In this document: positions 139 to 62,232 of the stretch, piece after piece
Layout of the letters: the number at the start of each line of letters is the position of its first letter
How positions within the stretch are numbered: the first letter of the stretch is position 1
Source of the DNA: Patescibacteria group bacterium
Lineage (GTDB): Bacteria > Patescibacteriota > Minisyncoccia > Phycocordibacterales > UBA9973
NCBI GenBank assembly: GCA_028868715.1
Contig: JAGWUB010000002.1
Span: 8,430 to 72,429, forward strand
Length of the DNA: 64,000 nt
Direction of reading: 5' to 3'
Notes under the pieces: model-generated
Told to the model about the DNA's origin: nothing
Database searches by the model: none
Seen by the model: the letters and a program-made list of their open reading frames with translations, nothing else
Translations under genes and position numbers: made by a program

Positions 139-186
139 AAGCTCCAAATAGTTTGTGTTATAATATATACTGTAGCTTTTTTAAAA

Positions 187-1289: not shown

Positions 1290-1319
1290 TAATAACCATA
1301 TAAGTGATATAATATAAGC

Positions 1320-2291
1320 ATGAAAAATATTTTCATTACAAGAGAAATACAAGCAGAAACCATAAAAACACTAAGAGACAAAGGATACAATATAACAATT
1401 GGTAAAAAAAAGACTCCTCTAACTCAACAAGAAATAATCAAAGAAATAAAGGGTAAAAACTATGATGCGGTCATTACCTTACTCACTGACAAAATAGACG
1501 GAAAAGTTTTTGACGCCAGCCCAGCTACCAAACTTTTCGCTAATTATGCTGTCGGCTATGACAATATTGACCTAGTCGAAGCTACTAAAAGAGGAATTAG
1601 TGTAACTAACACACCCGGAGATTATGTAGATGGTGTGGCCCAGCATGCGATAGCTCTTTTACTTGCTTTGATGTCTCGGCTCGTAGAAGCAGATACCTTT
1701 GTGCGAAAAGGAAAATATAAGGGATGGGATCCAATGCTTTTCCTGGGATATAAATTAAAAGGTAAAACTGTGGCTGTCATAGGTACCGGCAGAATAGGTG
1801 AACAAGTGGCCTACAAACTTCACTGTGGTTTTGGTACAAAAATAATTTATTACGATACAGTAAAAAATGAAAGAATAGAAAAAGATTGTGATGCGCAATT
1901 AATGACTTCTCTAGATGAAGCACTTTCGGTGGCGGATATAATTTCTATCCATGTTCCACTTTTACCTTCTACCCATCATCTAATAAATAAAGAAAATTTA
2001 AAGAAAATGAAACCTTCTGCATATATTATCAATACTTCCCGTGGCCCAGTGATTGATGAAAATGCTCTAGTCTATGCTCTTAAAAATGGTGAGATACGTG
2101 GTGCAGGTTTGGATGTGTATGAATTTGAACCAAAACTTGCAAAAGGGCTCACGAAATTAAAGAATACAGTACTGTCGCCCCACATCGCCTCAGCACAATT
2201 TGAATCAAGAGAAGAGATGGGAAGAATTTTAGCAGAAAATGTTATAGATTTTTTTGAAGACAGAATACCTAGAAATAAAGTCAATAAATAA
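1320..2291 (+). CDS. D-isomer-specific 2-hydroxyacid dehydrogenase (glycerate/hydroxypyruvate reductase or D-lactate dehydrogenase-like), NAD(P)-binding
   Basis: GYDNIDL…TNTPG substrate-domain motif, GTGRIGEQVA Rossmann motif, and the catalytic R/E/H context (…TSRGPVIDE…LDVYEFEP…SPHIASA). Confidence 0.8.
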   Translation: MKNIFITREIQAETIKTLRDKGYNITIGKKKTPLTQQEIIKEIKGKNYDAVITLLTDKIDGKVFDASPATKLFANYAVGYDNIDLVEATKRGISVTNTPGDYVDGVAQHAIALLLALMSRLVEADTFVRKGKYKGWDPMLFLGYKLKGKTVAVIGTGRIGEQVAYKLHCGFGTKIIYYDTVKNERIEKDCDAQLMTSLDEALSVADIISIHVPLLPSTHHLINKENLKKMKPSAYIINTSRGPVIDENALVYALKNGEIRGAGLDVYEFEPKLAKGLTKLKNTVLSPHIASAQFESREEMGRILAENVIDFFEDRIPRNKVNK

Positions 2292-2297
2292 AAACTT

Positions 2298-3752: not shown

Positions 3753-3754
3753 TT

Positions 3755-5002
3755 ATGGCTATTATTTCAAAACTAGAAGCCAAAGAAATTTTAGATTCTA
3801 GGGGGAACCCCACCGTCCAAGCCTCCTGTCGGCTACAAGATGGAACAATAGAAATTGCCTCAGTGCCATCTGGAGTAAGTACCGGTAAATATGAAGCATT
3901 TGAGCTTAGAGATAATGATATGAATAGATATAGAGGCAAAGGGGTAGAGAGGGCTGTGGGAAACATAAATGGAGAAATTTCAGAATTTTTAGTTGGAAAA
4001 GAATTGGACCAGAATACTCTAGATGAGGCTCTGATAAATTTAGATGGTACAAAAAATAAACAAAGACTTGGGGCAAATGCCATACTGGCAGTTTCGCTGG
4101 CTTTTGCGAGAGCCTCAGCTAAAGAGAAGGGAATACCACTTTTTAAGTACCTAGCAAATATATATTTTAAAAATGAAAATGAAAGAATGTATAAAATTCC
4201 ACAACCAGTTTTCAATACCATAGAGGGTGGTAAGCATTCAGATAGCGGACTATCTTTTCAGGAGTTTTTATTAGTTCCACAAGAATTTGAAAATATAAAA
4301 ATAAAATTAGAAGTAATAAAAAAGATATTTATATCCTTAAAAGATCTACTGGTAAAAGATGGGTATGAAGTAAATCTAGGTGATGAAGGTGGATTTTCTC
4401 CAAAGCTTTCATCTGATGAGAAAGTTTTAGAATATTTCAATATGGCTATTTCTTCTGCTGGCTATAATGCAGATCAAGTAAAAATTGGACTAGATGTTGC
4501 TGCCACGACTTTTTTCAAAGATGGCCTTTATCTTATAAAAGAGAATAAATTAAATACGCGAGAAATGATAGAAATGTATAAAAAATTATGTGAGCAATAC
4601 AAAATAATTTCAATTGAAGATGGGCTCAACGAAGAAGATTTTGCTGGGTTTGCGGAAATGAATAAAGCATTAGGTCAGATGATAAATATTGTGGGAGACG
4701 ATATTACTGTCACCAACATTGATCTAATTAAAAACGCAATAAATAATAAATCCATCAACACTCTCCTCATCAAACCAAATCAAATTGGCACACTTTCGGA
4801 AACTATGCAGGCCATCAGATTGGCAAAAGAAAATAATATTAAAACTTTCATATCTCACAGAGGTGGCGAGACAGAGGATACTTTTGTTGCTGATTTGGCA
4901 GTCGCCGTGGGCGCTGATTTTATAAAGGCCGGTGGCCCAACTAAGCCGGAGCGAATAGTAAAATATCATAGACTGATAGAGATAGAAGAGCTTATTAAAT
5001 GA
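3755..5002 (+). CDS. eno: Enolase (phosphopyruvate hydratase)
   Basis: AIISKLEAKEILDSRGNPTVQA…SVPSGVSTGKYEAFELRD is the canonical enolase N-terminus, and the C-terminal barrel motifs (IKPNQIGTLSET, SHRGGETED) are present. Starts 3 nt after the PGM::PK ORF. Confidence 0.9.
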   Translation: MAIISKLEAKEILDSRGNPTVQASCRLQDGTIEIASVPSGVSTGKYEAFELRDNDMNRYRGKGVERAVGNINGEISEFLVGKELDQNTLDEALINLDGTKNKQRLGANAILAVSLAFARASAKEKGIPLFKYLANIYFKNENERMYKIPQPVFNTIEGGKHSDSGLSFQEFLLVPQEFENIKIKLEVIKKIFISLKDLLVKDGYEVNLGDEGGFSPKLSSDEKVLEYFNMAISSAGYNADQVKIGLDVAATTFFKDGLYLIKENKLNTREMIEMYKKLCEQYKIISIEDGLNEEDFAGFAEMNKALGQMINIVGDDITVTNIDLIKNAINNKSINTLLIKPNQIGTLSETMQAIRLAKENNIKTFISHRGGETEDTFVADLAVAVGADFIKAGGPTKPERIVKYHRLIEIEELIK

Positions 5003-5033
5003 CTTTTTAAGCCTATTCTGTTATATTCTCTCT

Positions 5034-5855
5034 ATGTCTAAATTATCTGTGGGAATTGTTGGCTTGCCAAACGTTGGAAAATCTACGCTTTTTAATGCGC
5101 TTACTAAAAAGGGTGTGCCAGCAGAAAATTATCCTTTTTGTACCATTGATCCATCAGTAGGAATTGTTCCGGTTCCAGATGAAAGGCTAGATAAGCTTTC
5201 AGCTATGAGTAAGTCCAAGAAAACCATACCGGCGGTGGTAGAGTTTGTGGATATCGCAGGTCTGGTTAAAGGAGCTTCTACTGGAGCTGGACTCGGTAAT
5301 AAATTTTTGTCTCACATACGTGAGGTGGACGCTATTATTGAAGTGGTCCGAATTTTTGAGGATAAAGACATGATTCATGTGCACGATAAAGTGGACCCAC
5401 TTTTTGATATTGAAGTTATAAATTTTGAATTAGAACAAGCTGGAATTAAAAAGCCAACACTATATGTATTAAATACATCAGAAGCATCTGACAATGTAAA
5501 AAAAGATTTTATCTCAAGTCTTCCTGGGCCTTACTTAGAAGTAGACCCGATTTTTGGTACAGGATTAGATAATTTAATTAAATCTAGTTACGATTTATTG
5601 AACTTGATTACCTTCTTTACCACTGGAGAGGATGAGTCTAGAGCCTGGACAACCAAGCGGGACGCTAAAGCTCCAGAAGCAGGACGATCTATTCACAACG
5701 ATTTTAAGGAAAAATTTATTCGCGCGGAAGTAATAAACTGGAAAGATTTACTTGATTGTGGGTCTTATGCAGTTGCTCGATCAAAAGGACTAGTACGCAC
5801 CGAAGGCAAGGAGTACGTCGTACAAGACGGCGATGTTATCGAGTTTTTGGTGTAG
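5034..5855 (+). CDS. ychF: Ribosome-binding ATPase YchF/OLA1-like (Obg family), short form lacking the central helical insertion
   Basis: GIVGLPNVGKSTLFNALT P-loop, DIAGLVKGAS G3 region, and a C-terminal TGS-like segment (EGKEYVVQDGDVIEFLV). At 273 aa it is ~90 aa shorter than E. coli YchF. Confidence 0.7.
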   Translation: MSKLSVGIVGLPNVGKSTLFNALTKKGVPAENYPFCTIDPSVGIVPVPDERLDKLSAMSKSKKTIPAVVEFVDIAGLVKGASTGAGLGNKFLSHIREVDAIIEVVRIFEDKDMIHVHDKVDPLFDIEVINFELEQAGIKKPTLYVLNTSEASDNVKKDFISSLPGPYLEVDPIFGTGLDNLIKSSYDLLNLITFFTTGEDESRAWTTKRDAKAPEAGRSIHNDFKEKFIRAEVINWKDLLDCGSYAVARSKGLVRTEGKEYVVQDGDVIEFLV

Positions 5856-6378
5856 CTGGTTTCTTCTTCTTATATTTTTTTACTTTCACTGCCACCTTCT
5901 TTATTTTTGGTTGAGCCTTTACTTTTATTGGCTTCTTCAAGCCCTCAATCTCATGCATGAGTAATGTGAGTGTGTTTTCTATATTTTTAAATTTCTCATT
6001 TTCTATTTGTTCATGTCTTTCTTCTTCTTCATCCTCAGAAATTTCTTCCACGTCCTCCTGAATTTCATCCACATCTTTTTGAATTTCATCCACGTCCTCC
6101 TGAATTTCATCCACATCTTTTTGAATTTCTTCAATGTCCTCTGACACTTCCTCCAGTTCCTCACTTTGTCTATTCACAGTGATTTGAATAAAAATTGAAA
6201 GGTAAATCGCTTCCAAGGATACTGCTGTTGTCAAAATTAATAAAATGCTTGAGGTATCAAAACCCAAAAATCGCAATCCAAAAATACCTATAAAAAAGAT
6301 TGTGTGAATTATTAAAGACCCAGTTGACCCGATAGCTGCCGTTAAGTTTTTAGAAAAATCATTAAATTTATCATTCAT
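5836..6378 (-). CDS. Membrane-anchored protein with an acidic 7-aa tandem repeat (DVDEIQE/K x5) and a lysine-rich basic C-terminal tail
   Basis: N-terminal hydrophobic helices, the repeat (EEIQKDVDEIQEDVDEIQKDVDEIQEDVEE) encoded by 21-nt DNA tandem repeats at ~6034-6153, and the C-terminal KVKAQPKIKKVAVKVKKYKKKKPATPKTR. The 3' end overlaps ychF by 20 nt on the opposite strand. Confidence 0.5.
   Translation of the reverse strand: MNDKFNDFSKNLTAAIGSTGSLIIHTIFFIGIFGLRFLGFDTSSILLILTTAVSLEAIYLSIFIQITVNRQSEELEEVSEDIEEIQKDVDEIQEDVDEIQKDVDEIQEDVEEISEDEEEERHEQIENEKFKNIENTLTLLMHEIEGLKKPIKVKAQPKIKKVAVKVKKYKKKKPATPKTR
6034..6153 (-). repeat. Near-perfect 21-nt tandem repeats (~5.5 copies) inside the coding region
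   Basis: cacgtcctcctgaatttcatc alternates with cacatctttttgaatttcatc, directly visible in the sequence. Confidence 0.85.
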
Positions 6379-6425
6379 AATTAGTCTTATTTATTATCTA
6401 ATCCTTATATGATATACTTTTTTAT

Positions 6426-6977
6426 ATGAATGCACAATCAAAAGTTCTTAAATGGTCCCTTATTATTGGTATTGTTATCGTGATTAACTTGTTTTTTAAT
6501 TACTCTCTTTCTTTGGTTTATAAACATCCGGTATACGAAAACTTTTGCCCGAATACAGCTCAAACCATCGAGACTATTAACACAAGAGAGCAGTGTATTC
6601 AGATAGGTGGACAGTGGAATGGCAATGTCTATGCGGTGCCTGCGCCTGTACCAGTAGAAAAAATAGCACAACCACAAGGTTATTGTGACCAGCAATTTAC
6701 TTGCCGAAATACTTTCGAAGCTTCACAAAAAGTATATGATAGAAATGTATTTATTACTCTGGTTCTCTTGGGTGCTATTTGTGTGGCGGTTGGAACTTTT
6801 CTCGGAGTAAATATGCTGATCAGTATTGCACTGTCTATCGCTGGGGTTTTATCATTTGTTATTGCCTCAATGCGATATTGGAGCTCTGCTGATGATCTAA
6901 TAAAAGTTGTTATTTTAGGAATTGCACTCGCTATTTTAGTTTGGGTGGCTATGAAAAAATTTAAAGATAATAAGTAA
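6426..6977 (+). CDS. Hypothetical membrane protein (N-terminal TM, Cys-containing extracytoplasmic segment, C-terminal TM helices)
   Basis: Hydrophobic segments at both ends and a coherent ORF with no antisense alternative. No family recognised. Confidence 0.4.
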   Translation: MNAQSKVLKWSLIIGIVIVINLFFNYSLSLVYKHPVYENFCPNTAQTIETINTREQCIQIGGQWNGNVYAVPAPVPVEKIAQPQGYCDQQFTCRNTFEASQKVYDRNVFITLVLLGAICVAVGTFLGVNMLISIALSIAGVLSFVIASMRYWSSADDLIKVVILGIALAILVWVAMKKFKDNK

Positions 6978-6981: not shown

Positions 6982-7851
6982 ATGTTTGAAAATTGGAAAA
7001 TATTTGAAGGTACTTACGTCAACCCCATCGTCCTAAAAGACAGAATGACAACGATAGAGGAGGTAAGACAAAGCTCCAAGGACAAAAATAAGGAAGTGAA
7101 TGAAGCTATTTTGGAGCGTTTGAAAATTATTGAAGTAAAATATTTATCAAAAGACAAAAAAGTTTATTTAGGGCAGATAGTCATCGATAAAGATTTGGCT
7201 GACAATATCTTGAAATTGTTTGATTATATTGAAAAAATGAATAACAACACTGATACAGCAGATGATAAGAAATTTTTTATAGAAAAAATAATACCGATAT
7301 CAAATGAAAAATATAAAGACAACGATGCTCTGTCTATGGAAGACAACAATACCTCTGCATTTAATTACAGATTAATAGAAGGAAAAAACAGATTATCTTC
7401 ACACGCCTTTGGTTTTTCTATAGATATAAACCCCAAGGATAATCCGGTTATGATTAATGGAGTAGTAAGTCAACCAAGAAATGGCAAGTATGATGAAAAA
7501 AATTCAAATACCTTAACCCCGCATCATAAGGTGGTAGAATTTTTAAAACAACGAGGATTTGAATGGGGTGGAGACTGGAAGTCTTCAAAAGATTACCATC
7601 ATTTTCAAAAGATCCTTCCCACCAAAGAGTACCTAAAGAATTATATTGATAACGCAATTGATAACACAGAAGAAAATATTTTAGATACACTTGGAAAGTT
7701 ATTTATCAATAGTTACAAATTGGAACATTTTCAGGCACTACTCAATTTTGTTAAAAATGATGTTATTATCAGCAAAATTGGCAAAGAACAATACTTGAAA
7801 TTTTTTAATCTTTTAAACGAGCAAATACATAATGCACAAATACGATCATAA
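6982..7851 (+). CDS. Hypothetical protein with a C-terminal LAS-type (peptidase M15 / VanY-like) metallopeptidase signature
   Basis: SSHAFGFSIDINP (H…D zinc-ligand motif) and GFEWGGDWKSSKDYHHFQ (WGG-W…D-HF motif of M15 D-Ala-D-Ala / L-Ala-D-Glu peptidases). The call rests on motifs only. Confidence 0.4.
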   Translation: MFENWKIFEGTYVNPIVLKDRMTTIEEVRQSSKDKNKEVNEAILERLKIIEVKYLSKDKKVYLGQIVIDKDLADNILKLFDYIEKMNNNTDTADDKKFFIEKIIPISNEKYKDNDALSMEDNNTSAFNYRLIEGKNRLSSHAFGFSIDINPKDNPVMINGVVSQPRNGKYDEKNSNTLTPHHKVVEFLKQRGFEWGGDWKSSKDYHHFQKILPTKEYLKNYIDNAIDNTEENILDTLGKLFINSYKLEHFQALLNFVKNDVIISKIGKEQYLKFFNLLNEQIHNAQIRS

Positions 7852-10663
7852 GAAAATTGAAAAAAAATGGCAAAATATTTGGGAGAAAAAGGGAGTTTAT
7901 CATGCCGATGATAAATCTAAGAAACCCAAGTATTATACTTTAATTGAATTCCCATATCCTTCCGGTGATGGCCTTCATGTAGGACACCCTAGGCCGTACA
8001 TAGGTATGGATGTTATTTCTAGAAAAAGACGAATGCAAGGGTACAACGTACTTTACCCGATAGGTTGGGACGCCTTTGGATTGCCGACAGAAAACTATGC
8101 CATAAAGACTGGTAAGGATCCCAGAGTGGTTACCAAGAAAAATACTGACACTTTTAGAAAACAAATAAAGTCTTTAGGGGTTTCCTTTGATTGGTCACGA
8201 GAAATTAATACCACTGACCCAAAATATTATAAATGGACCCAATGGATATTTTTACAATTTTATAAAAAGGGCTTAGCTTATAAGGCTAAGATGACCATTA
8301 ATTGGTGCCCAAAGGATAAAATAGGTTTAGCCAACGAAGAAGTGATAAATGGGTGTTGCGAGAGGTGTGGCACACCAGTTGAAAAGCGAGAGAAAGAACA
8401 GTGGATGCTGGGCATTACTAAATATGCTGAGAGATTGGATAAAGATTTAGATACCGTTGATTATTTACCACAAATAAAAATAGGGCAGAGGAATTGGATA
8501 GGGAAGTCTGTGGGCGCAGAGATAGAATTTAAAATATCTTCAACCAACGAAAGTATAAAAGTATTCACCACTCGACCAGACACTATTTTCGGCGCTACAT
8601 TTATTGCGTTAGCTCCTGAGGTGGCAAAGAAAATAACAGGTAAAGATTTTGGCATAAAAGTAGATACCGATCGAGAGAATAAAGAAAAAATTGGTATAGA
8701 TACTGGGTTGAAGGCTAAAAATCCTGCGAGCGGTGAACAAATACCCGTATTCGTAGTCAATTATGTATCCGCAGATTATGGCACAGGAGCTATAATGGGA
8801 GTACCGGCGCACGATGAAAGAGATTTTGAATTTGCGAAAAAATATAATTTACCAATTATAGATGTGGTAATACCCATTAGAGTTGATAATACCAATCCTC
8901 ATATTTCTGGTAAAAAAATTGTTGAAAGAAAAGCTGTTCAAGCAATAATTAGAAATCCAAAAAATGGAAAAATTCTTTGTTTAAATTGGAAGGCTCATCC
9001 ATGGACTACGTTTGTGGTTGGTGGAGTGGAAAAAGGAGAAGATATTCTAGAAGCCGCAAGACGAGAAGTGTTAGAAGAAACAGGTTATAAAAATATAAAA
9101 TTTATAAGAGTATTAGGTGGCCAAGTAAGAAGTGAGTTTTTTGCAGCACATAAAGACGAAAATAGAGTTGCATATTTTAATGCTATTTTATTTGAACTAG
9201 AGAACGAAGATAGGATCGAAGTTTCAAGAGAAGAAATTGAAAAACATGAAGTTGTATGGAAGGACCCAAAAGATATTCGTTCTGATACTATGCAATGTGG
9301 AGAGCTAGATATTTGGCTTGAAAGACTAAAAAATGAAAACGCTGTTAATGCAGAGAATGGTATTCTAACTAACTCTGGAAAATTTAATGGCATGGACAGT
9401 GAAAATGCTAAGAAGGAAATCATTAAATTTGTTGGTGTAGAGGAAAAAACAACCTTCAAGCTTCGGGATTGGATATTCTCTAGACAGAGGTACTGGGGTG
9501 AACCAATACCTATTATTCATTGTAGTAAATGTGGTATGGTTCCAGTTCCTGAAAAAGATTTGCCCGTAGAGCTTCCTAAGGTAAAAAATTATCAGCCGAC
9601 GGATAGTGGCGAATCACCACTGGCCAATATTTCTAAATGGGTCAATGTAAAATGTCCAAAGTGTAAAGGGGGAGCATTGAGGGAGACAGATACTATGCCA
9701 AACTGGGCAGGCTCAAGCTGGTATTACCTTAGATATACAGACCCTAAAAATAAAAATGCATTTGCTGACAAGAAAAATTTGAAATACTGGACACCAGTAG
9801 ATTGGTACAACGGTGGCAACGAACACACCACGCTTCATCTTTTATATTCTCGTTTTTGGCACAAATTTCTGTATGATTTAAAGCTCGTACCAACTTCCGA
9901 GCCGTACATGAAGCGTACTTCTCATGGCATGATTCTCGGTGAAGGGGGAGTAAAGATGTCTAAATCAGTCGGCAACGTCATCAACCCAAACGAAATCGTA
10001 AAAATATATGGAGCCGATACAATGCGAGTTTACGAAATGTTTATGGGGCCGTTCGATCAGTCTGTGGCTTGGAGTGACGAAGCGATCATAGGTCCACGAA
10101 GATTTTTAGAAAAAGTTTGGAAGTTGGGGGAGCTGGTAGAGAAAAATTCAGTCCGTGTCGGAGCCCGCTTGCGGGTAAAGCGGCGTGATTTTTCTCTACC
10201 AGATTCCACTATAGCTAAACTCTTAAACAAGACAATAAAAAAAGTTTCTGAAGATATAGAAGCTATGCATTTCAATACCGCCATTTCTGCAATGATGATA
10301 CTTGCTACAGAAATGCAAAAATCAGAATCTGTTTCAGAAAAAGATTTCAAAATGTTTTTACAAATTTTAGCCCCATTCGCACCACACATTACCGAAGATC
10401 TCTGGCAGACACTCGGAGAGAAAAAATCTATCGATCTTTCCGTTTGGCCCAAGTGGGATGAAAATTTAATTCAAGACGAAGAGGTGACCATAATAGTTCA
10501 AGTAAATGGCAAAGTACGCGGACAATTTAAAGCTTCTGTAGACATAAGTGAGGCTGAAGCTAAAAGCAAAGCAGAGAATTTACCAGAAGTTAGGAAATGG
10601 ATAACCACAGGTGTCAAGAGGTTTGTGTTTATCCCCAGAAAACTTATTAACATTGTAGTTTAG
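7832..10663 (+). CDS. leuS: Leucyl-tRNA synthetase carrying an inserted NUDIX hydrolase domain (~aa 365-485)
   Basis: HIGH (DGLHVGHPRPY) and KMSKS (VKMSKSVGNV) motifs, the TTRPDTIFGATF and GTGAIMGVPAHDERD editing-domain motifs, and RDWIFSRQRYWGEPIP. Between LPIIDVV and FKLRDW lies a ~145-aa extra segment containing a perfect Nudix box, GGVEKGEDILEAARREVLEETGY. Confidence 0.9.
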   Translation: MHKYDHKKIEKKWQNIWEKKGVYHADDKSKKPKYYTLIEFPYPSGDGLHVGHPRPYIGMDVISRKRRMQGYNVLYPIGWDAFGLPTENYAIKTGKDPRVVTKKNTDTFRKQIKSLGVSFDWSREINTTDPKYYKWTQWIFLQFYKKGLAYKAKMTINWCPKDKIGLANEEVINGCCERCGTPVEKREKEQWMLGITKYAERLDKDLDTVDYLPQIKIGQRNWIGKSVGAEIEFKISSTNESIKVFTTRPDTIFGATFIALAPEVAKKITGKDFGIKVDTDRENKEKIGIDTGLKAKNPASGEQIPVFVVNYVSADYGTGAIMGVPAHDERDFEFAKKYNLPIIDVVIPIRVDNTNPHISGKKIVERKAVQAIIRNPKNGKILCLNWKAHPWTTFVVGGVEKGEDILEAARREVLEETGYKNIKFIRVLGGQVRSEFFAAHKDENRVAYFNAILFELENEDRIEVSREEIEKHEVVWKDPKDIRSDTMQCGELDIWLERLKNENAVNAENGILTNSGKFNGMDSENAKKEIIKFVGVEEKTTFKLRDWIFSRQRYWGEPIPIIHCSKCGMVPVPEKDLPVELPKVKNYQPTDSGESPLANISKWVNVKCPKCKGGALRETDTMPNWAGSSWYYLRYTDPKNKNAFADKKNLKYWTPVDWYNGGNEHTTLHLLYSRFWHKFLYDLKLVPTSEPYMKRTSHGMILGEGGVKMSKSVGNVINPNEIVKIYGADTMRVYEMFMGPFDQSVAWSDEAIIGPRRFLEKVWKLGELVEKNSVRVGARLRVKRRDFSLPDSTIAKLLNKTIKKVSEDIEAMHFNTAISAMMILATEMQKSESVSEKDFKMFLQILAPFAPHITEDLWQTLGEKKSIDLSVWPKWDENLIQDEEVTIIVQVNGKVRGQFKASVDISEAEAKSKAENLPEVRKWITTGVKRFVFIPRKLINIVV

Positions 10664-22140: not shown

Positions 22141-22386
22141 TTGTGTCCTCGGCAGGATATCTCGGTTTACCACCGCGGGTGCTTTTCCGTTTAGTTTTAC
22201 TAAACATGGAAAAGCCTTTCGCTTCCTGCCCGAAATAAAGCAGTTTATTTCTCTCGGACACAGTTGTGTCCTCGGCAGGATATCTCGGTTTACCACCGCG
22301 GGTGCTTTTCCGTTTAGTTTTACTAAACAAGGAAAAGCCTTTCGCTTCCTGCACGAAATAAAGCAGTTTATTTCTCTCGGACACAC
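22141..22386. repeat. Two tandem 123-bp direct repeats (~97% identical). On the minus strand each ends with the last 17 nt of the adjacent tRNA-Arg (TCCTGCCGAGGACACAA).
   Basis: Unit 1 is 22141-22263 and unit 2 is 22264-22386, differing at 3 positions. The same 17-mer starts the tRNA region at 22387. Each unit contains a strong nested hairpin (gcttttcc-gtttagt-ttt-actaaac-at-ggaaaagc) and an AT hairpin (aaataaa-gcag-tttattt). Confidence 0.85.
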
Positions 22387-22389
22387 TTG

Positions 22390-22461
22390 TGTCCTCGGCA
22401 GGAATCGAACCTGCAACTACTCCTTAGGACGGAGTCGTTATATCCATTTAACTACGAAGAC
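22390..22461 (-). tRNA. tRNA-Arg (anticodon CCT)
   Basis: The reverse complement GTCTTCG-TA-GTTA…ACTCC-GTCCTAA-GGAGT-AGTT-GCAGG-TTCGATT-CCTGC-CGAGGAC-A is a clean cloverleaf of 72 nt. Confidence 0.8.
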
Positions 22462-52470: not shown

Positions 52471-53532
52471 TTAATATGCAATAACACTAGCAGAAAGACC
52501 ATCAGTAGGCACTTGGGTTCCTGGCTCGAATATCTTTGTGTTTAGAAGTAATAGGAAAATTATAATTGCGAGAACAGCTAGCCCTCTGCCAATCATGGCT
52601 GGATGCTGAAATTCTTTCTTGATAAATATTACTAGGATTAAGGCGAAGATCATTATCAATGCGATCCCGGAATAGATATAAGCCACATATTCTCGCGGTG
52701 AAGTTAGAATTTTTTGGATAAAAGATTTTATATTAGAAATTGTTAAATCATTTCCGGTTGTTGCGATAGAAGAATTTGTTTCCTCACCCAACACTCGCAC
52801 TGCAGTCGGAGTGGCTGTGATTGCTTTTGGAATTGCAGTCGGAGTATTTGCCACCGCCTTCGGCGGGGTCCCGCCAACGGCGGTGATTTTTGGTTTTGCC
52901 ACAGGAGTGATGATAGTTGTTTTTGTCTCTGTAGGTGTCGTGGTTGGGGCGCTTGGAACGGCTACTGGAGTGCCAAAAAATTGTGCTACAAAAACAGTGT
53001 TTTTGCCCTCATATATGCCATTTGCGACCCCAATACCGATCTCGGTGTAGTTTGGCTTTACTATATTAGCCCGATGAGTTGGTGAGTTCATCCAAGCCTG
53101 AGCCACATCTTGTGATTCAAAGAAATTTACCGCCAAATTCTCCCCTGCCATACTATAATCATAGCCAACTTGATCAAGCCAATACCATGGAGTTTTGCCA
53201 TCAGGACTAGTGTGAGCAAAATATCCACGAGTAGCCATATCGTTTGCTTTTAGTTGTGCTGCTTGAGTAAGTAAACTGTTCTCAGTTAGTGGAGCGAGAT
53301 TATTTTGCGCGCGCTCTTCATTTGTTAGCGTTGTCAGTACTCCTGGTAAAACAGAAGCCAAAAAACTTGTCTTATCAAAGACGACAAATACTTGAATCAG
53401 AAAACCAAGTTCAATCACAATAATTACAAACAAGATCAATATCGTAGACTCACGTCGCAAAAAATGCGGTTTGTAATTATTTTCGCCGTGTGGCACAAAG
53501 TATTTTTTCAGCCACTTAGTAAATTTTTGCAT
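52471..53532 (-). CDS. CAP/SCP/PR-1-like domain protein, membrane-anchored, with Thr/Pro-rich linker and C-terminal TM helix
   Basis: CAP motifs (GYFAHTSPDG, MAGENLA, WMNSPTHRANI), a TTTPTETKTT…TPTA linker, and a C-terminal hydrophobic segment. Confidence 0.7.
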   Translation of the reverse strand: MQKFTKWLKKYFVPHGENNYKPHFLRRESTILILFVIIVIELGFLIQVFVVFDKTSFLASVLPGVLTTLTNEERAQNNLAPLTENSLLTQAAQLKANDMATRGYFAHTSPDGKTPWYWLDQVGYDYSMAGENLAVNFFESQDVAQAWMNSPTHRANIVKPNYTEIGIGVANGIYEGKNTVFVAQFFGTPVAVPSAPTTTPTETKTTIITPVAKPKITAVGGTPPKAVANTPTAIPKAITATPTAVRVLGEETNSSIATTGNDLTISNIKSFIQKILTSPREYVAYIYSGIALIMIFALILVIFIKKEFQHPAMIGRGLAVLAIIIFLLLLNTKIFEPGTQVPTDGLSASVIAY

Positions 53533-53624
53533 TGTGTAAATTATACATTAAAAATCTCTAATGTCAATACTGTGATTACTCGAAATATGTATATGTATTA
53601 TAATACTTTTTCTGCTTTCATCAA

Positions 53625-53679: not shown

Positions 53680-56175
53680 TTAGGTCTTTGGGGTGTCTGG
53701 ATGCTTACTGAAAGGAATTAGATTTGTAGGGATAGGTATATTAAGAGAAGGACACATAATGTTGTTTATCTCAGTTGTCGTAGTTAGATAAACTATACCT
53801 GTTGGTATCTTAAGATTCCAAGGAGTAAGAATTTTATCTTTATGCGCTAATTGAAATGCTTTTACATTTTTATCTGTCTGAGCTCCAAAAACTCCATCTT
53901 CTTTGATTCCAGCCTTCAAGAAATCATTCAAGAATTTTTGAACTTTTTTAACCGCAGCAACATTATTATTCTTTTTACCCATCTTTAGATACTTGTCTAA
54001 GTAAATTCCGCAAGAAGTTTCTGCGCCGAGAACTTTACCATCTGTAGAAGCTCCGAGAACTCTACCACCTCCGATGTATCCCCCGCCAAAAGAAGTTCCA
54101 CCAGTATTATCTACGCAGTTGCCACTATTATCTATATGTTTACCAGCTGGAACAGTTGTTTGAGTTCCATCAATATTTGGGCAGACGTCAGGTTGAGTAA
54201 CAGTAATAGATGCATTAGCGGAATTATTCTCTCCATTTGGATCGCGAGTAGAACTGGAAGTGTTTGCTGTGTTTAAAATAACTTGTTCATTTGTAGCACT
54301 GTTTGAAACAGTAGCGGTGATATGAAGTGTTGCACTGCTATCATTTGCTAAGGTGCCAACTGTCCAAACTCCTGTTCCAGAAACGTAAGCTCCAGCACCG
54401 TCATCAGAAACATATGTGACTCCAGCTGGAAGTACATCGTTTACTACCACACTGTTTGCGCTATCAGGACCAGCGTTGTGGACTGTTATCGTGTATACAA
54501 CATTGCTTCCAATGTTTGGAGTCTGATTATCTACTGACTTGGCAATAGAAAGATCTGAACTTGTTCTTACTTCATCAGCAGCAAAACTTGCACTTACTGA
54601 AAGGTTTGCTGTTATATTTGTGTCAGTTCGTGGATTGGTTGTTGAAGTGTCGCTCCAATCTACAAAGTGGTAGCCAAGATTTGGAACTGCTGTGACCGCT
54701 GTGCCGTTTGCACCATAGTTAACTGTTTGTGGTGTAGTGCCAGTGATACTTCCATTAGCATTTGCAGTGTAAGTAAGAGTGAAAGTATCAATAGTAAAGT
54801 TTGCGATACAGGTTGTATCAGCTGTCAAAGTAACTGAACCATCTGTACAATCAGCATCTCCTCCCCAGCCGGTAAAGGTTGATCCCGTACTTGGAGTAGC
54901 ACTAATTGGTACTACTGTTCCCGTGTCGTATGTTCCGCTACCTGAAGTTGTTCCATCTCCAGTTCCAGCCTTATTGATTGTAAGAGTAAATCTGTCAGGA
55001 GCATTAGCAGCAAAGGTCGCAGAAATAGTGTGATTTGCTGTTATGTTTGAAAAGGTATAAGTCGTGACAACTCCTACAGATGAACTATCTACCAAAACAT
55101 CAGCGACGTGAAAACCACTATCAGGAGTTATTGTGTAAACTTGAGATGAACCATAATCTTTCGTTGTTACGCCTGTAGGGGTAACTGTACCATTTGCACC
55201 AGATGATGCGGTGATGGTGAAAGTGTCAATTGCAAAGTTTGCAGTTACACTAATATTTCCTTGAACATTTGAGTCAGTCCGTGGATTAGTTGTTGAAGCA
55301 TCGCTCCAATCTACAAAGTGGTAGCCAAGATTTGGAACCGCTGTGACCGTTGTGCCGTTTGCACCTTGGTTGACAGTCTGTGGCGAGGTACCAGTAATTG
55401 TACCGTTTGCACCAGCTGTGTAAGTCAAAGTGAATTGAGTTATAGGAATAAATGTATTTGTAATTGTACATGTGTATACATGCCCAGCAACGATGGTAAT
55501 ACTTCCATTTGCACAATCAGTGCTGTAGCTTGGAGTATAGCCTGAAGAATTAGATTCAGTTATAGAGTAAGGTCCGGCTACAATATCAGTAGGAGTATCT
55601 AAAGTAACTACAGTATTACCAACTTTAAATGGAGCAAAAGCACTTCCTAGAGCATTACTTCCAGAAACTACTTTGTGAATTACAACTGTACCGTTATTGG
55701 AAGGAGGCACATGTACACAAGTGGCAATAGTTGCGCTTGTATCACCTTGGTTGTCTTTGCCTGGAGGAGTGCTGTGGTAAAGCTTGGCTATAATAGAGAA
55801 ATTACCTGTGGTTGTATAAGTATGCGTACCTGTGAAAGTAAACGTGAAAGGTACATGACCAGAGTTTGGAGTGAAGGTTCCTAACCCATCTGTTACAGTT
55901 GTATCTCCCCAGTCAATCTCTACAGCATATTGACTAGCATCCCCAGGAGGAGCAATACCTGCCCCATTTCCAGAAACAGTTACAGGATTGAAAAGAGGAT
56001 TAGTTGCACAGTTGTTAAAATTAAATGGAGGAGTATGATTTCCACTTATTGGGTCTGAAATACTTGTAATCGCAATCGTTGGACTAGTAGCCGCTAAAAC
56101 TCTAAATACTCCGACCATGCCAAGGATCATTGCGAGCATGATAACTGGAGACAAAAACTTTAATAATTTTTTCAT
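53680..56175 (-). CDS. Large secreted cell-surface protein (831 aa) with Listeria-Bacteroides repeats (InlB B-repeat type), a DUF11 repeat and a C-terminal PG_binding_1-like domain
   Basis: Signal peptide. Repeated [38 protein letters not shown] units (FVDWSD is the List_Bact_rpt hallmark). DUF11-like segment ([49 protein letters not shown]…). C-terminal …[31 protein letters not shown] (LxxxG-x-DG-x-FG-xxT-xxAV-xxFQ). Internal DNA repeats of ~165 bp (54620-54785 and 55283-55447, about 90% identical). Confidence 0.75.
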
Positions 56176-57778: not shown

Positions 57779-58921
57779 TTAGTCATTTTCTCTTTCTCTT
57801 GTATTTATTCCAAGATTAACTCTGCCAGTTTGAAGATTTAAACTTTGGTTTCCCTTTAGAGAATTGCCATCATTTTCATTTTCATCAGCATCATTGTCAT
57901 CGTGTCCATGTTTTGCAACAGAGCTGACACATTGACCTTGGTTTCGGAAGGTTGGATTAGTAAAAGTCATCCAGCCACCTTTTTTACAATCATCTTTGCT
58001 TTGAGGACCAGTTATTAATACTGGATTTACAATAAAGGATGCAGAGATAGTGTGGTTGGCAGTAACATTACTAAAAGTATATGTTGAAACTGCACCTACT
58101 GAAACACTATCAACGAGAACATCCGCTACCCTAAAACCACTGTTTGCAGTTATGGTGAATATTTGGTTTGATCCACTGTTTATTACGACTGCACCTGTAG
58201 GTGATATTGTACCATCGGCACCAGCTGAAGCTGTGATAGTAAATGTATTAACCACTGGGTTTGCTGCGAAGGATGCTGCGATTGTGTGGTTGGCAATAAC
58301 ATTCGTAAATGTGTATGTGCTAACTGCTCCAACCGAAGTACCATCTACTAAAACATCAGCGACATGAAAGCCACTAACCGCGGCGATCGCAAATGTTTGG
58401 TTTTGCCCATCAGTAACTAATACTGAACCGCTTGGTGTGATAGAGCCATTAGCTCCAGCGGTAGCGGTGATTGTACGCAATGCAATAGCTGCACCACTTA
58501 CTGTGGTAAGGGCACCAGTTCGTGCACCACCTTTATAATTGTCAGACCATGTTCCAGTTATTTTTCCGTCAGTTCCAATTGTACCAGTTACATGAAGGAC
58601 TGTCTGTGGAGTGACCGCATCTGCCGTAGCTGTGTAGTTTGCAAGAAAATCAATTGAGTTTCCTGAAACAGTACCCGATGTGATGACCCATGTATAAACG
58701 TTTGTTCCTGCTGGACTTCCTCCATGACCAGTAAGGTTTCCGGAGCTATCCTGCACTAGAGACAAATCATGAGAATATTGAGTACCTAAGTATTCCATAT
58801 TCACTACATAGTTCCCCGTCGCGTTATATGCTGGAGCTGTAGCTTGAGCTCTTAGCGCGAAAGATGTGACCAATAATGCTAATACGACAAATATACCTCC
58901 AAATATTTTTATTTTTTTCAT
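57779..58921 (-). CDS. Secreted protein: novel N-terminal domain shared with the 61321..62232 protein, two Listeria-Bacteroides repeats, and an acidic Asp/Asn-rich C-terminal tail
   Basis: Signal peptide MKKIKIFGGIFVVLALLVTSFALRAQA. The N-domain has TGNYVV…LGTQYSHDL…G.LTG.GG.P.G…SG.VSGNSI.F…YT. There are two ~75-aa repeats ([32 protein letters not shown]). Confidence 0.7.
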   Translation of the reverse strand: MKKIKIFGGIFVVLALLVTSFALRAQATAPAYNATGNYVVNMEYLGTQYSHDLSLVQDSSGNLTGHGGSPAGTNVYTWVITSGTVSGNSIDFLANYTATADAVTPQTVLHVTGTIGTDGKITGTWSDNYKGGARTGALTTVSGAAIALRTITATAGANGSITPSGSVLVTDGQNQTFAIAAVSGFHVADVLVDGTSVGAVSTYTFTNVIANHTIAASFAANPVVNTFTITASAGADGTISPTGAVVINSGSNQIFTITANSGFRVADVLVDSVSVGAVSTYTFSNVTANHTISASFIVNPVLITGPQSKDDCKKGGWMTFTNPTFRNQGQCVSSVAKHGHDDNDADENENDGNSLKGNQSLNLQTGRVNLGINTREREND

Positions 58922-59133
58922 AAGATTTAATTAATTAGTAATAATTATTTGATAATAGATTGCAAGTTCACAAAATCGACTCAGGTGAACCTGCAAATAT
59001 ATATACGTATCATCATAGTAAAATCTTTCGTGACTAAATTTTATGAGTGCTTAGAAAATTTTTGTCAAACGAAAAACAGGATCCACTTTTAAAAGTGAAC
59101 CCTGTCTGTTGTTACTATCTTGAAACACGTGAA

Positions 59134-59718
59134 CTAATTCCTCAGCCTAGCCGGATTGCCGAGCTTGTTTTTGTCGATATATTTAAATTCACCAAAGGGG
59201 TCATTTTTAACCTCTTTAGTGATTGCATATAAACTCCATAAGCAAGTTGGAGTACCCGCCTTGCATGCAGTGCCACCGTCGTAGACGATCTTGACGAAGT
59301 ATCTATAGCGATGAGATTTGCCGTCCGAGCCGACATACTCACCCTCAACTTGGTTTGTAAGCCAGCCTTTAGACATATCGGTAAGACCACCATCGCCACC
59401 GCGATCGAGGCGGTAGTCATGGTTGCAGTCTCTCTTACTCAACCAACTGTCGCTCCATCTCATAATTAACTTAATGCTAGCGAAGTCAGTACCCCCACGA
59501 TAAAGGTTGTCACTTATTCTGTCCGAGGTGTCAAATGTTCCCTTGAAGATATGTGACTGGTAGTTGTACCCGAACTGGTCGAAGCCCAAAATGACCTTGT
59601 TTCGAACAGCGTCAATTATGACGCCGTCTTTGATCTTTATGCAGTCTGCCTGAGCCCAGATTGAAGTTGTAAAAAGAACCAAGAGTGCTATTGCACTCAA
59701 AATAATTTTCCCTCTCAT
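59134..59718 (-). CDS. Secreted hypothetical protein (Cys-containing, 194 aa from the MRGK start), locally GC-rich
   Basis: AGGAGA SD precedes the ATG at 59718. Signal peptide MRGKIILSAIALLVLFTTSIWAQA. The leader and signal peptide are near-identical at DNA level to those of the next gene. Confidence 0.5.
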   Translation of the reverse strand: MRGKIILSAIALLVLFTTSIWAQADCIKIKDGVIIDAVRNKVILGFDQFGYNYQSHIFKGTFDTSDRISDNLYRGGTDFASIKLIMRWSDSWLSKRDCNHDYRLDRGGDGGLTDMSKGWLTNQVEGEYVGSDGKSHRYRYFVKIVYDGGTACKAGTPTCLWSLYAITKEVKNDPFGEFKYIDKNKLGNPARLRN

Positions 59719-59867
59719 TTTAATTCTCCTGGAATTTATTTCAAAAAATACAACCAAAATGGTTGTGTATCCATAAAAATTATACCAAGATTACGTTCTT
59801 CTGTCAATTACAACAAAAAAGCGGACCTCTGTTTAAAGAAGCCCGCGAATGATGTGAAAAAAACGAT

Positions 59868-60905
59868 TTAATTGTTTGCATGAACCTTCGGCCGGTTCGT
59901 GAATGATGTATCAGCGTCAATCGCAGCACCCGAAGGGTTAGATATGGTTTTACACCCAACACCATAGCCAAGACCCGAAATGGCATTGTTGATCATCTTG
60001 TCGTTGTTGCCAACGTCGGAGATGCCAGCCTGGTACGATGAGTTGAAGCATAGGTCGCTGGAGATCGTGTTGTTCACCGCTTTGATATTGGTCGCAGTAT
60101 TTGGAGCTGAATAATCAGCAGCAAGGTTGGTGAGATAAACGCCAACATCATTGTTGACGAGTACATTATCTGTCACCTTGGTATTGACTGTATACGGACA
60201 ATCATTACCATCCGGACACTGACCATACCCAGCACCACCAACCACAATGATTCCACCCGAGGCCGAACCATCGCCTGGAAATCCAATGTAAGAATTTCCC
60301 GAAACCCGATTTTTCATTACTGAAGCACTTGCGCCGTAACCTATCTGTATACCGTTCATGGCAATGAAGTAAACATGTCCGTCGCCGGTAACAGTATTGC
60401 CTTGGATCGTAGCCTGTACTCCAGTACCATTTGTGACTATGCCACTTTTTTGGTAACCAGTTACGGTGTTACCGGCAATTTTACCAGTCACCCCACCACC
60501 AGCGAAAAATCCACGCCAATAGATACCTACGCCATGTTGAGTACCATCGTGCGGTGACTCTCCGATATCGTGAATATTGCTATTCAAAATATCCAGCGTG
60601 ATGTCGCCAGCGTCGCCGTTAGCGACGACACCGAAGTAGTTGGCACCGTAGATCTCAGCACCCTTGATAACTCCGCTTGATCCTGGGCCGTAGTAGACGC
60701 CGATGTTGCAAGTAGTAGCATCCACCGGACCGGTGACCAACGTTGGGTTAATGAGGACCGCCGTCATGTTTATACCGTCGCGAAGGAATCCTGTTGGGCT
60801 ACATTTTGGTTGAGGAGGCAGCGTTGTTTGCGCCGACACTGTCATTGCAAAAGTTGTAAAAAGAACTAAGAGTGCTATTGCACCCAAAACAATTTTAATC
60901 TTCAT
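59868..60905 (-). CDS. Secreted right-handed parallel beta-helix (PbH1) repeat protein (pectate-lyase-fold; adhesin or glycan-degrading enzyme candidate), locally GC-rich
   Basis: GGAG SD upstream of the ATG at 60905 (the track ORF extends to 61028). Signal peptide MKIKIVLGAIALLVLFTTFAMTVSAQT. PbH1-like turns (GNTVTGY, IQGNTVTGD, NRVSGNSY, VTDNVLVNNDVGVYL, AVNNTISS, MINNAISG). Confidence 0.6.
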   Translation of the reverse strand: MKIKIVLGAIALLVLFTTFAMTVSAQTTLPPQPKCSPTGFLRDGINMTAVLINPTLVTGPVDATTCNIGVYYGPGSSGVIKGAEIYGANYFGVVANGDAGDITLDILNSNIHDIGESPHDGTQHGVGIYWRGFFAGGGVTGKIAGNTVTGYQKSGIVTNGTGVQATIQGNTVTGDGHVYFIAMNGIQIGYGASASVMKNRVSGNSYIGFPGDGSASGGIIVVGGAGYGQCPDGNDCPYTVNTKVTDNVLVNNDVGVYLTNLAADYSAPNTATNIKAVNNTISSDLCFNSSYQAGISDVGNNDKMINNAISGLGYGVGCKTISNPSGAAIDADTSFTNRPKVHANN

Positions 60906-61014
60906 CTCTAGTCTCCTGTTGAAGTTATTGAATTGATTTGAAAAAACACAGCCTGAATTGGCTGTGAATCCGAGAAATAATATACCAAAATTATGTTTGG
61001 TTGTCAACAGGGTA

Positions 61015-61050
61015 AAACAAAAAACCACCTATTTATAGGCGGTTTTTTGT
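61015..61050 (-). terminator. Rho-independent terminator for the 61063..61245 gene (aaaaccacc-tatttata-ggcggtttt)
   Basis: Hairpin followed by a T-run on the minus strand, immediately 3' of the small gene. Confidence 0.45.
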
Positions 61051-61062
61051 TATGAAGAATTA

Positions 61063-61320: not shown

Positions 61321-62232
61321 TTAGTTGGCAATATCTCCCTCAAACACATCATTAGTTCCATCACTATTTGATTTATCTTGCCAATGGCGATATGTTAAAG
61401 TTTTATTAGAACTATTGTACTCAAAGTTCCAACTAGAATTATTTTCAGTTATTGGAGCTCCAAAAACTGAATGAATGAAGCTACTTCTACTTTTACATGC
61501 ATCTGAGGAAGTAGTGCAAACACTTGGATCAAAAGAAGTGGCAGTAACTGTTTCAGATACAAATCCCTGGAATTTACCTTTTATACCTCCAGTTATTGAC
61601 GTACCATGATGATTGCTTTGTGAACATTTACCAGGGCTTTCTCCATCAATAGTGATAAAGGTGCCGTCCTTATAGGCAGTTCTTACTAAATACGTACCAT
61701 CTCCATTTGCTGTTACTGTAAAAAATAAATTATAAGTATCATTTGCCCACTCAGGACCGCAAGATGAACCATCAGGAGATCCTGAGCTTATTGGTCCAAT
61801 ATGATTTACATATGTAATTGACTTTGCTAGGCCAGAAGTTGTATGCCATTCCCAGGGGAATGTGCCACTTATTGTGCCATCAGAAGCAATCGTTCCTGTA
61901 ATATTCCAAGTTGAACCAACAGCATATGGTCCTGTGTATGTTAAAGTAAATGATATTGTGTTTCCAGAAACAATACCATTTGTAATTAACTCAGCAGTTT
62001 GACCAGCTAATGCATATGGTGAATCACCGGATGGATATCCTCCAGTCCCTGTGAATGTACCATCTGGATTCATCGTAAGCACCATATCGTGTGAGTAAGT
62101 TCCCAAAACTAACCAAGTATAAGTTCCTGTTACATCCCAATTAGGCAATGCTACTGCATGCGCTGGTGAGGCCATTAGAAATGGAGTCAACACAAACGCG
62201 ATGCTAAGAAAAACACTTAATATTTTTTTCAT
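61321..62232 (-). CDS. Secreted hypothetical protein sharing its N-terminal domain with the 57779..58921 protein
   Basis: Signal peptide MKKILSVFLSIAFVLTPFLMASPAHA. The N-domain …TGTYTWLVLGTYSHDMVLTMNPDGTFTGTGGYPSG…SGNTISFTLTYTGPY… parallels …TGNYVVNMEYLGTQYSHDLSLVQDSSGNLTGHGGSPAG…SGNSIDFLANYTATA…. Confidence 0.5.
   Translation of the reverse strand: MKKILSVFLSIAFVLTPFLMASPAHAVALPNWDVTGTYTWLVLGTYSHDMVLTMNPDGTFTGTGGYPSGDSPYALAGQTAELITNGIVSGNTISFTLTYTGPYAVGSTWNITGTIASDGTISGTFPWEWHTTSGLAKSITYVNHIGPISSGSPDGSSCGPEWANDTYNLFFTVTANGDGTYLVRTAYKDGTFITIDGESPGKCSQSNHHGTSITGGIKGKFQGFVSETVTATSFDPSVCTTSSDACKSRSSFIHSVFGAPITENNSSWNFEYNSSNKTLTYRHWQDKSNSDGTNDVFEGDIAN

Follow-up and report, generated by a model that had tools for sequence, protein, structure and literature searches.

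In Borrelia burgdorferi, recombination at the UHB/erp (ospE/ospF-related) genes moves cargo behind a common 5' module; these genes encode lipoproteins, lie on multi-copy cp32 prophage plasmids, are present in many copies per cell and have defined operator-binding regulators. Mature UHB/erp proteins that are divergent or unrelated follow a shared upstream promoter region and leader peptide (Marconi et al. 1996, PMC178399; Akins et al. 1999, PMC96492; Sung et al. 2000, PMC97285; all listed in PMC10016077). In the vsp and vpma loci of Mycoplasma, the 5' untranslated and signal-peptide coding regions are highly conserved among clustered genes, and the rest of these genes is without significant homology (PMC2268961). 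The Mycoplasma loci are phase-variable, with one promoter that is moved by the site-specific recombinase Xer1, and encode repeat-bearing lipoproteins. Here we describe two neighbouring genes, A and B, that share a 5' module in a 64,000-nt stretch of a metagenome-assembled genome (MAG) of a Patescibacteria group bacterium (assembly GCA_028868715.1, contig JAGWUB010000002.1, positions 8,430 to 72,429). We call this whole stretch the window, and all positions refer to it. Genes A and B (locus tags KGL67_02115 and KGL67_02120, on a 287,952-bp contig of the NCBI MAG) are two minus-strand open reading frames (ORFs), A at 59718-59134 (194 aa) and B at 60905-59868 (345 aa).

By analogy with UHB/erp, A and B appear as unrelated mature proteins behind a shared upstream promoter region and leader peptide. 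Unlike UHB/erp, the arrangement was found in two chromosomal copies (in 64 kb), the leaders are of the signal peptidase I (SPase-I) type, there is no prophage context and the cargo is probably foreign to the host. The locus also resembles vsp/vpma (and vlp) in its conserved 5' untranslated region (5'UTR) and signal peptide before non-homologous mature regions. It differs from vsp/vpma in that each copy has its own promoter and terminator, that no recombinase gene or inverted sites were found at the locus, and that the cargoes, both globular, come from widespread families. The A/B arrangement would work like these systems and is a member of neither; its distinctive point is the xenologous cargo. 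To us the pair is a clear case of gene re-packaging, a phenomenon already known, and does not represent a new kind of system.

Patescibacteria rely on surface and secreted proteins for host-cell interaction; most of these proteins are unannotated, and how the repertoire changes is poorly understood. Genetic exchange of Patescibacteria with other community members has been documented in a study whose title and abstract concern metabolic capacities (PMC12455944). Unlike the transfers described in that title and abstract, those proposed here concern genes for predicted secreted proteins, and what stands out is the 5' module common to both genes, more than the transfer. The A/B locus offers a concrete and testable example of what would be one front end on two unrelated foreign genes, with the junction inside the signal peptide. 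If the arrangement is general, shared 5' modules could serve as a search key for recently recruited secretome genes of the Candidate Phyla Radiation (CPR), and the module itself as a ready-made strong promoter, UTR and signal-peptide part for the hard-to-manipulate Patescibacteria.

A shared 5' module in front of two unrelated proteins

The block common to both genes reaches from the −35 box through codon 18 (A, 59807-59664, 144 nt; B, 61007-60851, 157 nt). Apart from one 11-nt indel, which falls between U-run and Shine-Dalgarno sequence, the copies align over 143 ungapped columns, of which 117 (82%) are identical; ~90-100 nt of each ~144-157-nt copy is non-coding. Within the coding part, a 33-nt signal-peptide core (encoding AIALLVLFTT) shows a single, synonymous base difference, with 0 chance matches expected. 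As a pairwise control we aligned the −115 to +54 regions of all window genes. The A/B pair reached a local alignment score of 66, compared with 11.4±2.9 for 1596 window pairs and 28 for the next best, which places it ~19 standard deviations (sd) above. The similarity ends after LLVLFTT, and the two proteins are alike in residues 1-18 only. Identity between the signal peptides was 14/26, compared with a background of 1-8/26 for non-orthologous leaders and with 18/26 and 11/26 for true orthologues. The c-region and cleavage site are gene-specific (SIWA in A and FAMTVSA in B, each cut before Q).

Judged from these alignments, the two modules are truly homologous, and their likeness greatly exceeds what generic signal-peptide composition would give. 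An earlier reading of this DNA from its letters (the sequence-only reading) had proposed that a single promoter-leader-signal cassette stands before two ORFs with different cargo, and the 82% module identity in front of unrelated mature proteins bears this out. Its reservation that the likeness might be limited to generic signal-peptide composition does not agree with the alignment score (66 versus 11.4±2.9) or with the homologous non-coding part. That the duplication was recent, as also suggested, finds no support: the cassette copies are ~18% diverged, and the synonymous sites of B are saturated relative to its closest known homologue. The shared upstream box, named there as a possible common regulatory site, is the sigma-70 core promoter and no separate operator. 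The motif search for this box that had been advised, made over the 64-kb window, found extended −10 sites with at most one mismatch only at A and B. Overlooked had been a conserved 5'UTR hairpin and U-run between promoter and Shine-Dalgarno sequence.

The window holds two copies of the module. Sensitive local alignment detected no further copy in the other 5' regions of the window or in any of the 99 fetched loci. Pattern scans for the module gave 0 matches in the GTDB species-representative genomes (596 Gb; the source genome is not among them), 0 matches in IMG/VR and five matches in JGI metagenomes, all of them unrelated chance matches.

Probable foreign origin of the cargo genes

The GC content of 59134-60905 was 0.455, compared with 0.392 and 0.353 in flanks of equal length and 0.377 in the window. 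Of all 1772-nt stretches in the window it is the richest in GC: among 1245 sliding windows it ranks second, behind only the same interval shifted by 33 nt (sliding-window mean 0.377, sd 0.021). As gene-level reference we used 56 window ORFs, with a GC content of 0.379±0.031 and a GC content at third codon positions (GC3) of 0.320±0.051. Gene A had a GC content of 0.451 and a GC3 of 0.523 (z +4.0), and gene B 0.478 and 0.462 (z +2.8), the two highest GC3 values among the ORFs. Both were also the poorest fits to the synonymous codon usage of the window (z −2.8 and −2.95). The neighbouring secreted proteins are Gly/Ala/Ser/Thr-rich and have a high GC content at second codon positions (GC2) only, with GC3 values of 0.22-0.33. 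Expression-linked codon bias as the cause of the islet was rejected because presumed highly expressed housekeeping genes have a low GC3 (enolase 0.267, L9 0.363, GreA 0.367, FtsZ 0.307). The sequence-only reading had described a GC-richer islet between AT-biased flanks. Both the sliding-window GC and the per-gene GC3 and codon usage, with A and B as outliers, confirm this description, and all sequence strings quoted in it are present at their places.

Elsewhere, the two families follow their hosts. The GC3 of A homologues in 65 other loci matches the host (median z 0.15), with 17% strong positive and few negative outliers; B homologues match the host GC3 in four of five loci. The positive outliers of the A family include several other Patescibacteria (L065, L010, L060, L058, L078 and L043), with GC3 values of 0.80 versus 0.27 for the host in L065 and 0.77 versus 0.39 in L010. 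On this compositional evidence, the A family appears to enter CPR genomes repeatedly and to be a frequently transferred gene. Its distribution is patchy: 136 loci were found among the GTDB species representatives, in many Patescibacteria classes, Chloroflexota, Acidobacteriota, Proteobacteria, Bacteroidota, Planctomycetota and archaea. For gene B, over 1700 homologues (top identity 79%) are spread across Patescibacteria, Acidobacteriota and Gammaproteobacteria. The homologue search outside the lineage that had been recommended earlier returned relatives of both genes in other phyla.

The corresponding locus of a relative was available on contigs L092-94, which carry a protein NCBI-labelled Candidatus Nomurabacteria and encode a PilB 88% identical to that of the window. 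The gene order there is PilB, a 483-aa protein, a 253-aa protein, a protein like the 380-aa protein of the window (p380; 66%), one like its 831-aa protein (p831) and a CAP-like protein. This syntenic locus is without A, B, the S8 peptidase gene and the DUF1059 gene (60 aa, PF06348; 61063-61245, minus strand) that lies directly upstream of cassette B in the window. Homology with L092 resumes at the promoter of the 380-aa gene, just downstream of the gene A terminator, and this places the islet edge at ~59070.

No B homologue was found within 10 kb in 80 A loci from GTDB species, and no A homologue in the six B loci examined; the idea of a conserved A+B gene pair was rejected on these grounds. 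Viral contigs held no relatives of A or B, and a phage vector was rejected for that reason.

Taken together, the outlying composition and codon usage, the host-equilibrated families elsewhere, the patchy distribution and the absence from the relative indicate that the A and B cargo was probably acquired horizontally and is foreign to the host. The earlier reading had named horizontal acquisition as a possibility, and the codon outliers, the host-matched GC3 of the families elsewhere and the L092-94 locus strengthen it.

Anatomy of the two transcription units

All features of the two units lie on the minus strand. Gene A has a −35 hexamer TTGACA (59802-59807) and an extended −10 element TGgTATAAT (59779-59787) at a 17-nt spacing; this promoter, TTGACA-17-TATAAT, matches the consensus at 12/12 positions. 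Gene B has TTGACA (61002-61007) and the extended −10 element TGgTATATT (60979-60987), also with a 17-nt spacer (TTGACA-17-TATATT), and matches at 11/12 positions overall. Six sigma-70 sites were found in the 64 kb, two perfect and four with one mismatch, and the TG extension occurs only at A and B. The other perfect 12/12 site (TTGACA-16-TATAAT, 53540-53567, minus strand) lies upstream of the gene for a CAP-domain secreted protein (52471-53532); secretome genes of the A/B locus seem to have unusually strong predicted promoters.

The Shine-Dalgarno sequence AGGAG stands 7 nt before the ATG in gene A (59726-59730) and in gene B (60913-60917), and the two are aligned with each other. In the public annotation, KGL67_02115 (gene A, 59134-59718, minus strand) is called as a 109-aa protein starting at Met86. 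The family alignment, the Shine-Dalgarno sequence, the signal peptide and an independent gene call all support the ATG that follows AGGAG. Gene A is accordingly a 194-aa protein with a signal peptide, which corrects the 109-aa call.

Both leaders are predicted Sec/SPase-I signal peptides, read from the sequence by visual criteria as MRGK-IILSAIALLVLFTT-SIWA in A and MKIK-IVLGAIALLVLFTT-FAMTVSA in B, each followed by Q after the cut. The signal peptide of gene B, MKIKIVLGAIALLVLFTTFAMTVSA before Q (60831-60905), has an n-region with K/K, a 13-residue hydrophobic core and a V-S-A cleavage motif; only its codons 1-18 (60905-60852) belong to the shared module. That of gene A, MRGKIILSAIALLVLFTTSIWA before Q (59653-59718), has codons 1-18 (59718-59665) in common with gene B. 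The lipobox L-x-x-C is absent from both leaders. Behind them lie the cargoes, in gene A a small, putatively secreted protein of an uncharacterised family (59134-59652) and in gene B a protein modelled as a right-handed parallel beta-helix (59868-60830).

Gene B ends with an intrinsic terminator of a 10-bp stem and U6 (59815-59846; ΔG −16.4 kcal/mol, z −5.3). The terminator of gene A, with a 15-bp stem and a U-run (59069-59107; ΔG −19.3 kcal/mol), marks the downstream edge of the islet. Upstream of cassette B stands the terminator of the DUF1059 gene (61016-61051; ΔG −19.0 kcal/mol). Because each gene has its own predicted promoter and its own strong terminator, A and B are best described as separate monocistronic units and not as an operon. 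From these signals both genes are probably strongly expressed, and both products are predicted to be secreted.

The 5'UTR hairpin of gene A consists of ACAACCA-uuu-UGGUUGU, one A and then U6 (59743-59766; ΔG −7.2 kcal/mol, z −2.5), and that of gene B of CACAGCC-aattca-GGCUGUG and U6 (60941-60966; ΔG −13.2 kcal/mol, z −4.85 versus shuffles). The 7-bp stems differ by one compensatory pair, A-U in A and G-C in B, and only ~5-6 nt lie between the predicted transcription start and the stem. Both hairpins are weaker than the terminators of the locus (−7.2 and −13.2 versus −16.4, −19.3 and −19.0 kcal/mol). The minimum free energy folds of the leaders contained no alternative (antiterminator) pairing. 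Rfam gave no leader family at threshold; the best match (32.8 bits versus a gathering cut-off of 47) was to an unrelated family and lay over a neighbouring terminator.

The ompA and aprE mRNAs are stabilised by 5'-terminal stem-loops, according to references in a review (PMC3997798). The E. coli ompA/papA and B. subtilis aprE leaders, which belong to highly expressed exported proteins as those of A and B are predicted to do, share with A and B a hairpin near the (here predicted) mRNA 5' end and a strong ribosome-binding site after it (references in PMC3997798). The A/B hairpins differ from the ompA/papA/aprE stabilisers in carrying U6, which the classic ones do not need, and in the ~5-6 unpaired nt that may precede the stem. 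The likeness is one of position alone, counted from the predicted start. By this analogy we infer that the hairpin would be mainly a 5' mRNA-stabilising structure and not an attenuator.

Origin of the module

We propose that the variable secretome locus beside the type IV pilus ATPase gene has taken up A and B as xenologous cargo and that their ~150-nt 5' modules (−35 to codon 18) are of one origin. Recombination would have copied the module either from one of the two genes to the other or to both from a third, with the 3' junction inside the signal-peptide coding region, at the boundary of h- and c-region. Two unrelated foreign proteins would thereby have been given the same transcription, translation-initiation and export signals. 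Each unit would comprise an extended −10 sigma-70 promoter, a ~45-60-nt leader beginning with stem-loop and U-tract, AGGAG, n- and h-regions, a gene-specific c-region, the mature protein and a terminator. The sigma-70 holoenzyme would start at ~59772 and ~60971. As described for ompA and aprE, the 5' stem-loop may guard the short leader against 5'-end-dependent decay, and the strong Shine-Dalgarno sequence would drive translation. The shared n- and h-regions would send the pre-proteins to Sec, and SPase-I would cut at the gene-specific sites.

The A homologues carry diverse, unrelated leaders and upstream regions, and the upstream regions and signal peptides of the closest B-clade loci differ from the cassette. 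Together with the lack of A-B linkage in other sampled genomes, this diversity of 5' regions argues that the module is not ancestral to either family and that recombination put it on one of the two genes at least. The independent origins of A and B would put the duplication most simply in this lineage, in a genome that held both cargoes, and we favour this placement over a duplication in a donor. Capture of the module by foreign cargo through recombination, with duplication in this lineage, is in our judgement the probable history, though by no comfortable measure.

Several observations weigh against this history. No native 'parent' gene of the module was detected in the window, the GTDB representatives, the JGI metagenomes or IMG/VR. 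There are two copies only, and the 18% divergence between them does not speak for a recent event. For the cargo no donor was found, and the best homologue of B is saturated at synonymous sites. Boundaries of a mobile element were not seen: the islet has no flanking inverted or direct repeats, and the nearest tRNA gene is at 33 kb. No integrase, transposase or recombinase was found among the Pfam-scanned genes of 41.9-63.7 kb. Both leader hairpins with U6 fit an intrinsic-terminator pattern scan. The module has a GC content of 0.31/0.33 compared with 0.46/0.49 for the cargo, with a GC3 of 0.28/0.22 over the first 18 codons. Gene 5' ends are, however, generally AT-richer (mean GC3 drop 0.078), and 9% of the A homologues and three of the five B homologues showed drops of at least 0.25. 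AT-richness of the module as proof of its host origin was withdrawn, as comparable 5' drops are present in the homologues.

The same compositional point favours a different history, in which an unsampled donor of intermediate GC, where the module was already duplicated, delivered B and A, perhaps with the DUF1059 gene, as a single block with both module copies; in this lineage no capture would then have happened. As AT-rich 5' ends are common in the homologues, composition does not tie the module to the host. A and B are adjacent, co-oriented and similar in GC and GC3, nothing related to the module was detected in other parts of the window, and the DUF1059 gene, with a GC3 of 0.459 (a noisy value from only 61 codons), possibly belongs to the same acquired block. 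Such a transfer is harder to reconcile with the lack of linkage between A and B in all sampled genomes (80 A loci and six B loci), with the different contexts and unrelated 5' regions of their nearest relatives, and with the absence of the module from 596 Gb of species-representative genomes and from JGI metagenomes; we consider it a possible but not a likely course of events. That the GC enrichment stems from amino-acid composition, or from codon bias of highly expressed native genes, is very improbable and largely refuted. Consensus promoters on both genes do make high expression plausible, and the neighbouring secreted proteins have a high GC2, but the excess in A and B is at third positions (z +4.0 and +2.8), where the Gly/Ala/Ser/Thr-rich neighbours are low. 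The GC3 of enolase, L9, GreA and FtsZ (0.27-0.37), the host-following GC3 of both families elsewhere and the relative's syntenic locus without both genes speak against it as well. Hardly credible is an artefact or chance likeness, through generic signal-peptide composition or a chimeric mis-assembly. Signal peptides are compositionally similar, and the source is a MAG; yet the score lies ~19 sd above the background, a 33-mer with one mismatch was found where 0 are expected, and much of the block is non-coding. Moreover, an independent Logan assembly (SRR32006837, contig L001) matches 60930-55309 at 100% identity in the order B-A-p380-S8-p831, which refutes mis-assembly for the B-A and A-p380 junctions. 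The Logan contig breaks, as repeats lead one to expect, within cassette B and within repeated DNA of the 831-aa gene; the DUF1059-to-B junction (60930-61060) is supported by the MAG contig only.

A further alternative concerns the function of the hairpin only and is compatible with module capture. The hairpin and U6 might form a transcription attenuator, either constitutive or relieved by some factor, with the similarity of the modules kept by selection for co-regulation of A and B. Both hairpins satisfy the terminator pattern scan, that of B reaches −13.2 kcal/mol with U6, and the stem was kept through a compensatory change. The ~5-6 nt on the 5' side of the stem, however, leave no room for an antiterminator fold, the A stem has −7.2 kcal/mol compared with −16 to −19 for the bona fide terminators of the locus, and no Rfam leader family matched at threshold. 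We regard attenuation as distinctly unlikely.

The gene A and gene B families

A word-indexed search gave 43 homologues of gene A, and the family comprises 525 clusters at 50% identity among 1.84 billion proteins. No Pfam family, no NCBIfam family and no PDB sequence matched. Conserved motifs are C..KIxDG, GYNYQ, KWSDxWL, DCxxDxxLDRG and SKGWLTN, and all members have an N-terminal hydrophobic leader that ends just before the invariant Cys26. The analysis thus defines an uncharacterised, highly mobile family of putatively secreted proteins.

The protein of gene B itself had no Pfam match at E≤0.01 and no NCBIfam model, and its family alignment gave no PDB sequence match; many of its homologues (56-80% identity) have precomputed matches to PF13229. 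The AlphaFold2 (AF2) model, with a predicted local distance difference test (pLDDT) score of 87.9, shows a stack of short beta-strands in a right-handed parallel beta-helix. Nearly all top Foldseek neighbours are right-handed beta-helix proteins (tailspikes, alginate epimerases/lyases, GH87 and GH110), with weak matches (E ~1e-3, template modelling (TM) score ≤0.5). In its modelled fold the protein resembles the PF13229 Beta_helix/pectate-lyase-like proteins, and its nearest structural neighbours are polysaccharide-active enzymes and phage tailspikes. Unlike PF13229 members, it has no above-threshold match to a hidden Markov model and no assigned catalytic residues. The model suggests that gene B protein probably binds or cleaves extracellular polysaccharide.

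The closest B clade (75-79% identity) has a conserved chromosomal context on soil contigs of 53-55% GC (L003, L095 and L099), in the order acyl-CoA synthetase ... B ... FTR1, DUF3108, pyrF, pyrD. This context agrees with vertical inheritance of B in that clade and a transfer from it into the CPR lineage. B and its L003 homologue are 81% identical in amino acids and 43% identical at third positions, where synonymous sites are saturated; L003 as a recent donor of B was ruled out on this value. L003, a farmland soil contig of 53% GC (75-6566), carries homologues of three secretome modules of the window, namely of gene B (79%), of the C-terminal half of the 303-aa protein (41%) encoded next to pilB and of the C-terminal Cys motif KDDCK..GW..F.NQGQC of the 380-aa protein. 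This could mean that genes were exchanged with one lineage more than once. On the Candidatus Doudnabacteria contig L096 (7726-11884), DHO_dh and OMPdecase genes flank a B homologue that is a GC3 outlier there (z +2.3). Pyrimidine-synthesis genes adjoin B both there and in the 53-55% GC soil contigs, which may point to transfer of a larger block or to mis-binning.

Possible turnover of the secretome locus

The 303-aa gene next to pilB (61321-62232, minus strand) encodes a signal peptide that is identical at 16/26 positions to that of the 483-aa LamG protein of L092 (7552-9003), which occupies the same position. The mature parts of these two proteins are unrelated; the DNA between the genes, however compared across the two loci, can be aligned blockwise. 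The comparison suggests a second case of 'leader kept, cargo swapped', and such replacement might be a recurrent mode of change in the secretome locus. One could go further and suppose that the pilus-adjacent locus turns over by signal-peptide-anchored cargo replacement. Resident promoter-UTR-signal-peptide modules would act as sockets into which recombination in the h-region plugs foreign mature-protein sequences. This idea draws on the A/B module on two xenologous cargoes together with the orthologous signal peptide of the 303-aa and LamG proteins, and we offer it tentatively, as a rather doubtful generalization. If it is true, incoming genes would be expressed and exported immediately, and the presence of three secretome modules on L003 would fit repeated exchange with a host or neighbouring organism.

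Neighbouring genes and other observations in the window

A run of genes for secreted and surface proteins begins at ~52 kb and ends at the divergent type II/IV secretion ATPase (PilB-like) gene. Outside the A/B locus the window is ordinary CPR core genome, with glycolysis, aminoacyl-tRNA synthetases, the division and cell wall (dcw) cluster, FtsA/FtsZ and ribosomal protein L9. Within the run, repeated DNA at 54581-55434 and 58026-58376 occurs inside the 831-aa protein and between the 831-aa and 380-aa proteins. Both proteins have divergent InlB B-repeat (PF18998) domains, which may be the shared repeat units. The repeat domain of the 380-aa neighbour dominated the homologue search made with that protein, and P0220 and P0231 alone were useful for synteny.

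Other observations concern the core part of the window. In the leucyl-tRNA synthetase (943 aa; 7832-10663, plus strand), the editing domain is immediately followed by a NUDIX hydrolase domain (PF00293, residues 366-482, E 8e-15). A 484-aa ORF immediately upstream of enolase (2298-3752, plus strand) combines a histidine-phosphatase (phosphoglycerate-mutase-like) domain at residues 8-201 with a pyruvate-kinase barrel, whose best stretch covers residues 306-462 against profile positions 172-328 of 328. A 21-nt periodic repeat in six to seven copies (6022-6168) lies inside a DUF948/DUF1003-like ORF (5836-6378, minus strand). An intergenic tandem duplication of 123 nt (22141-22386; 98% identity) ends 3 nt before tRNA-Arg(cct) at 22389-22461.

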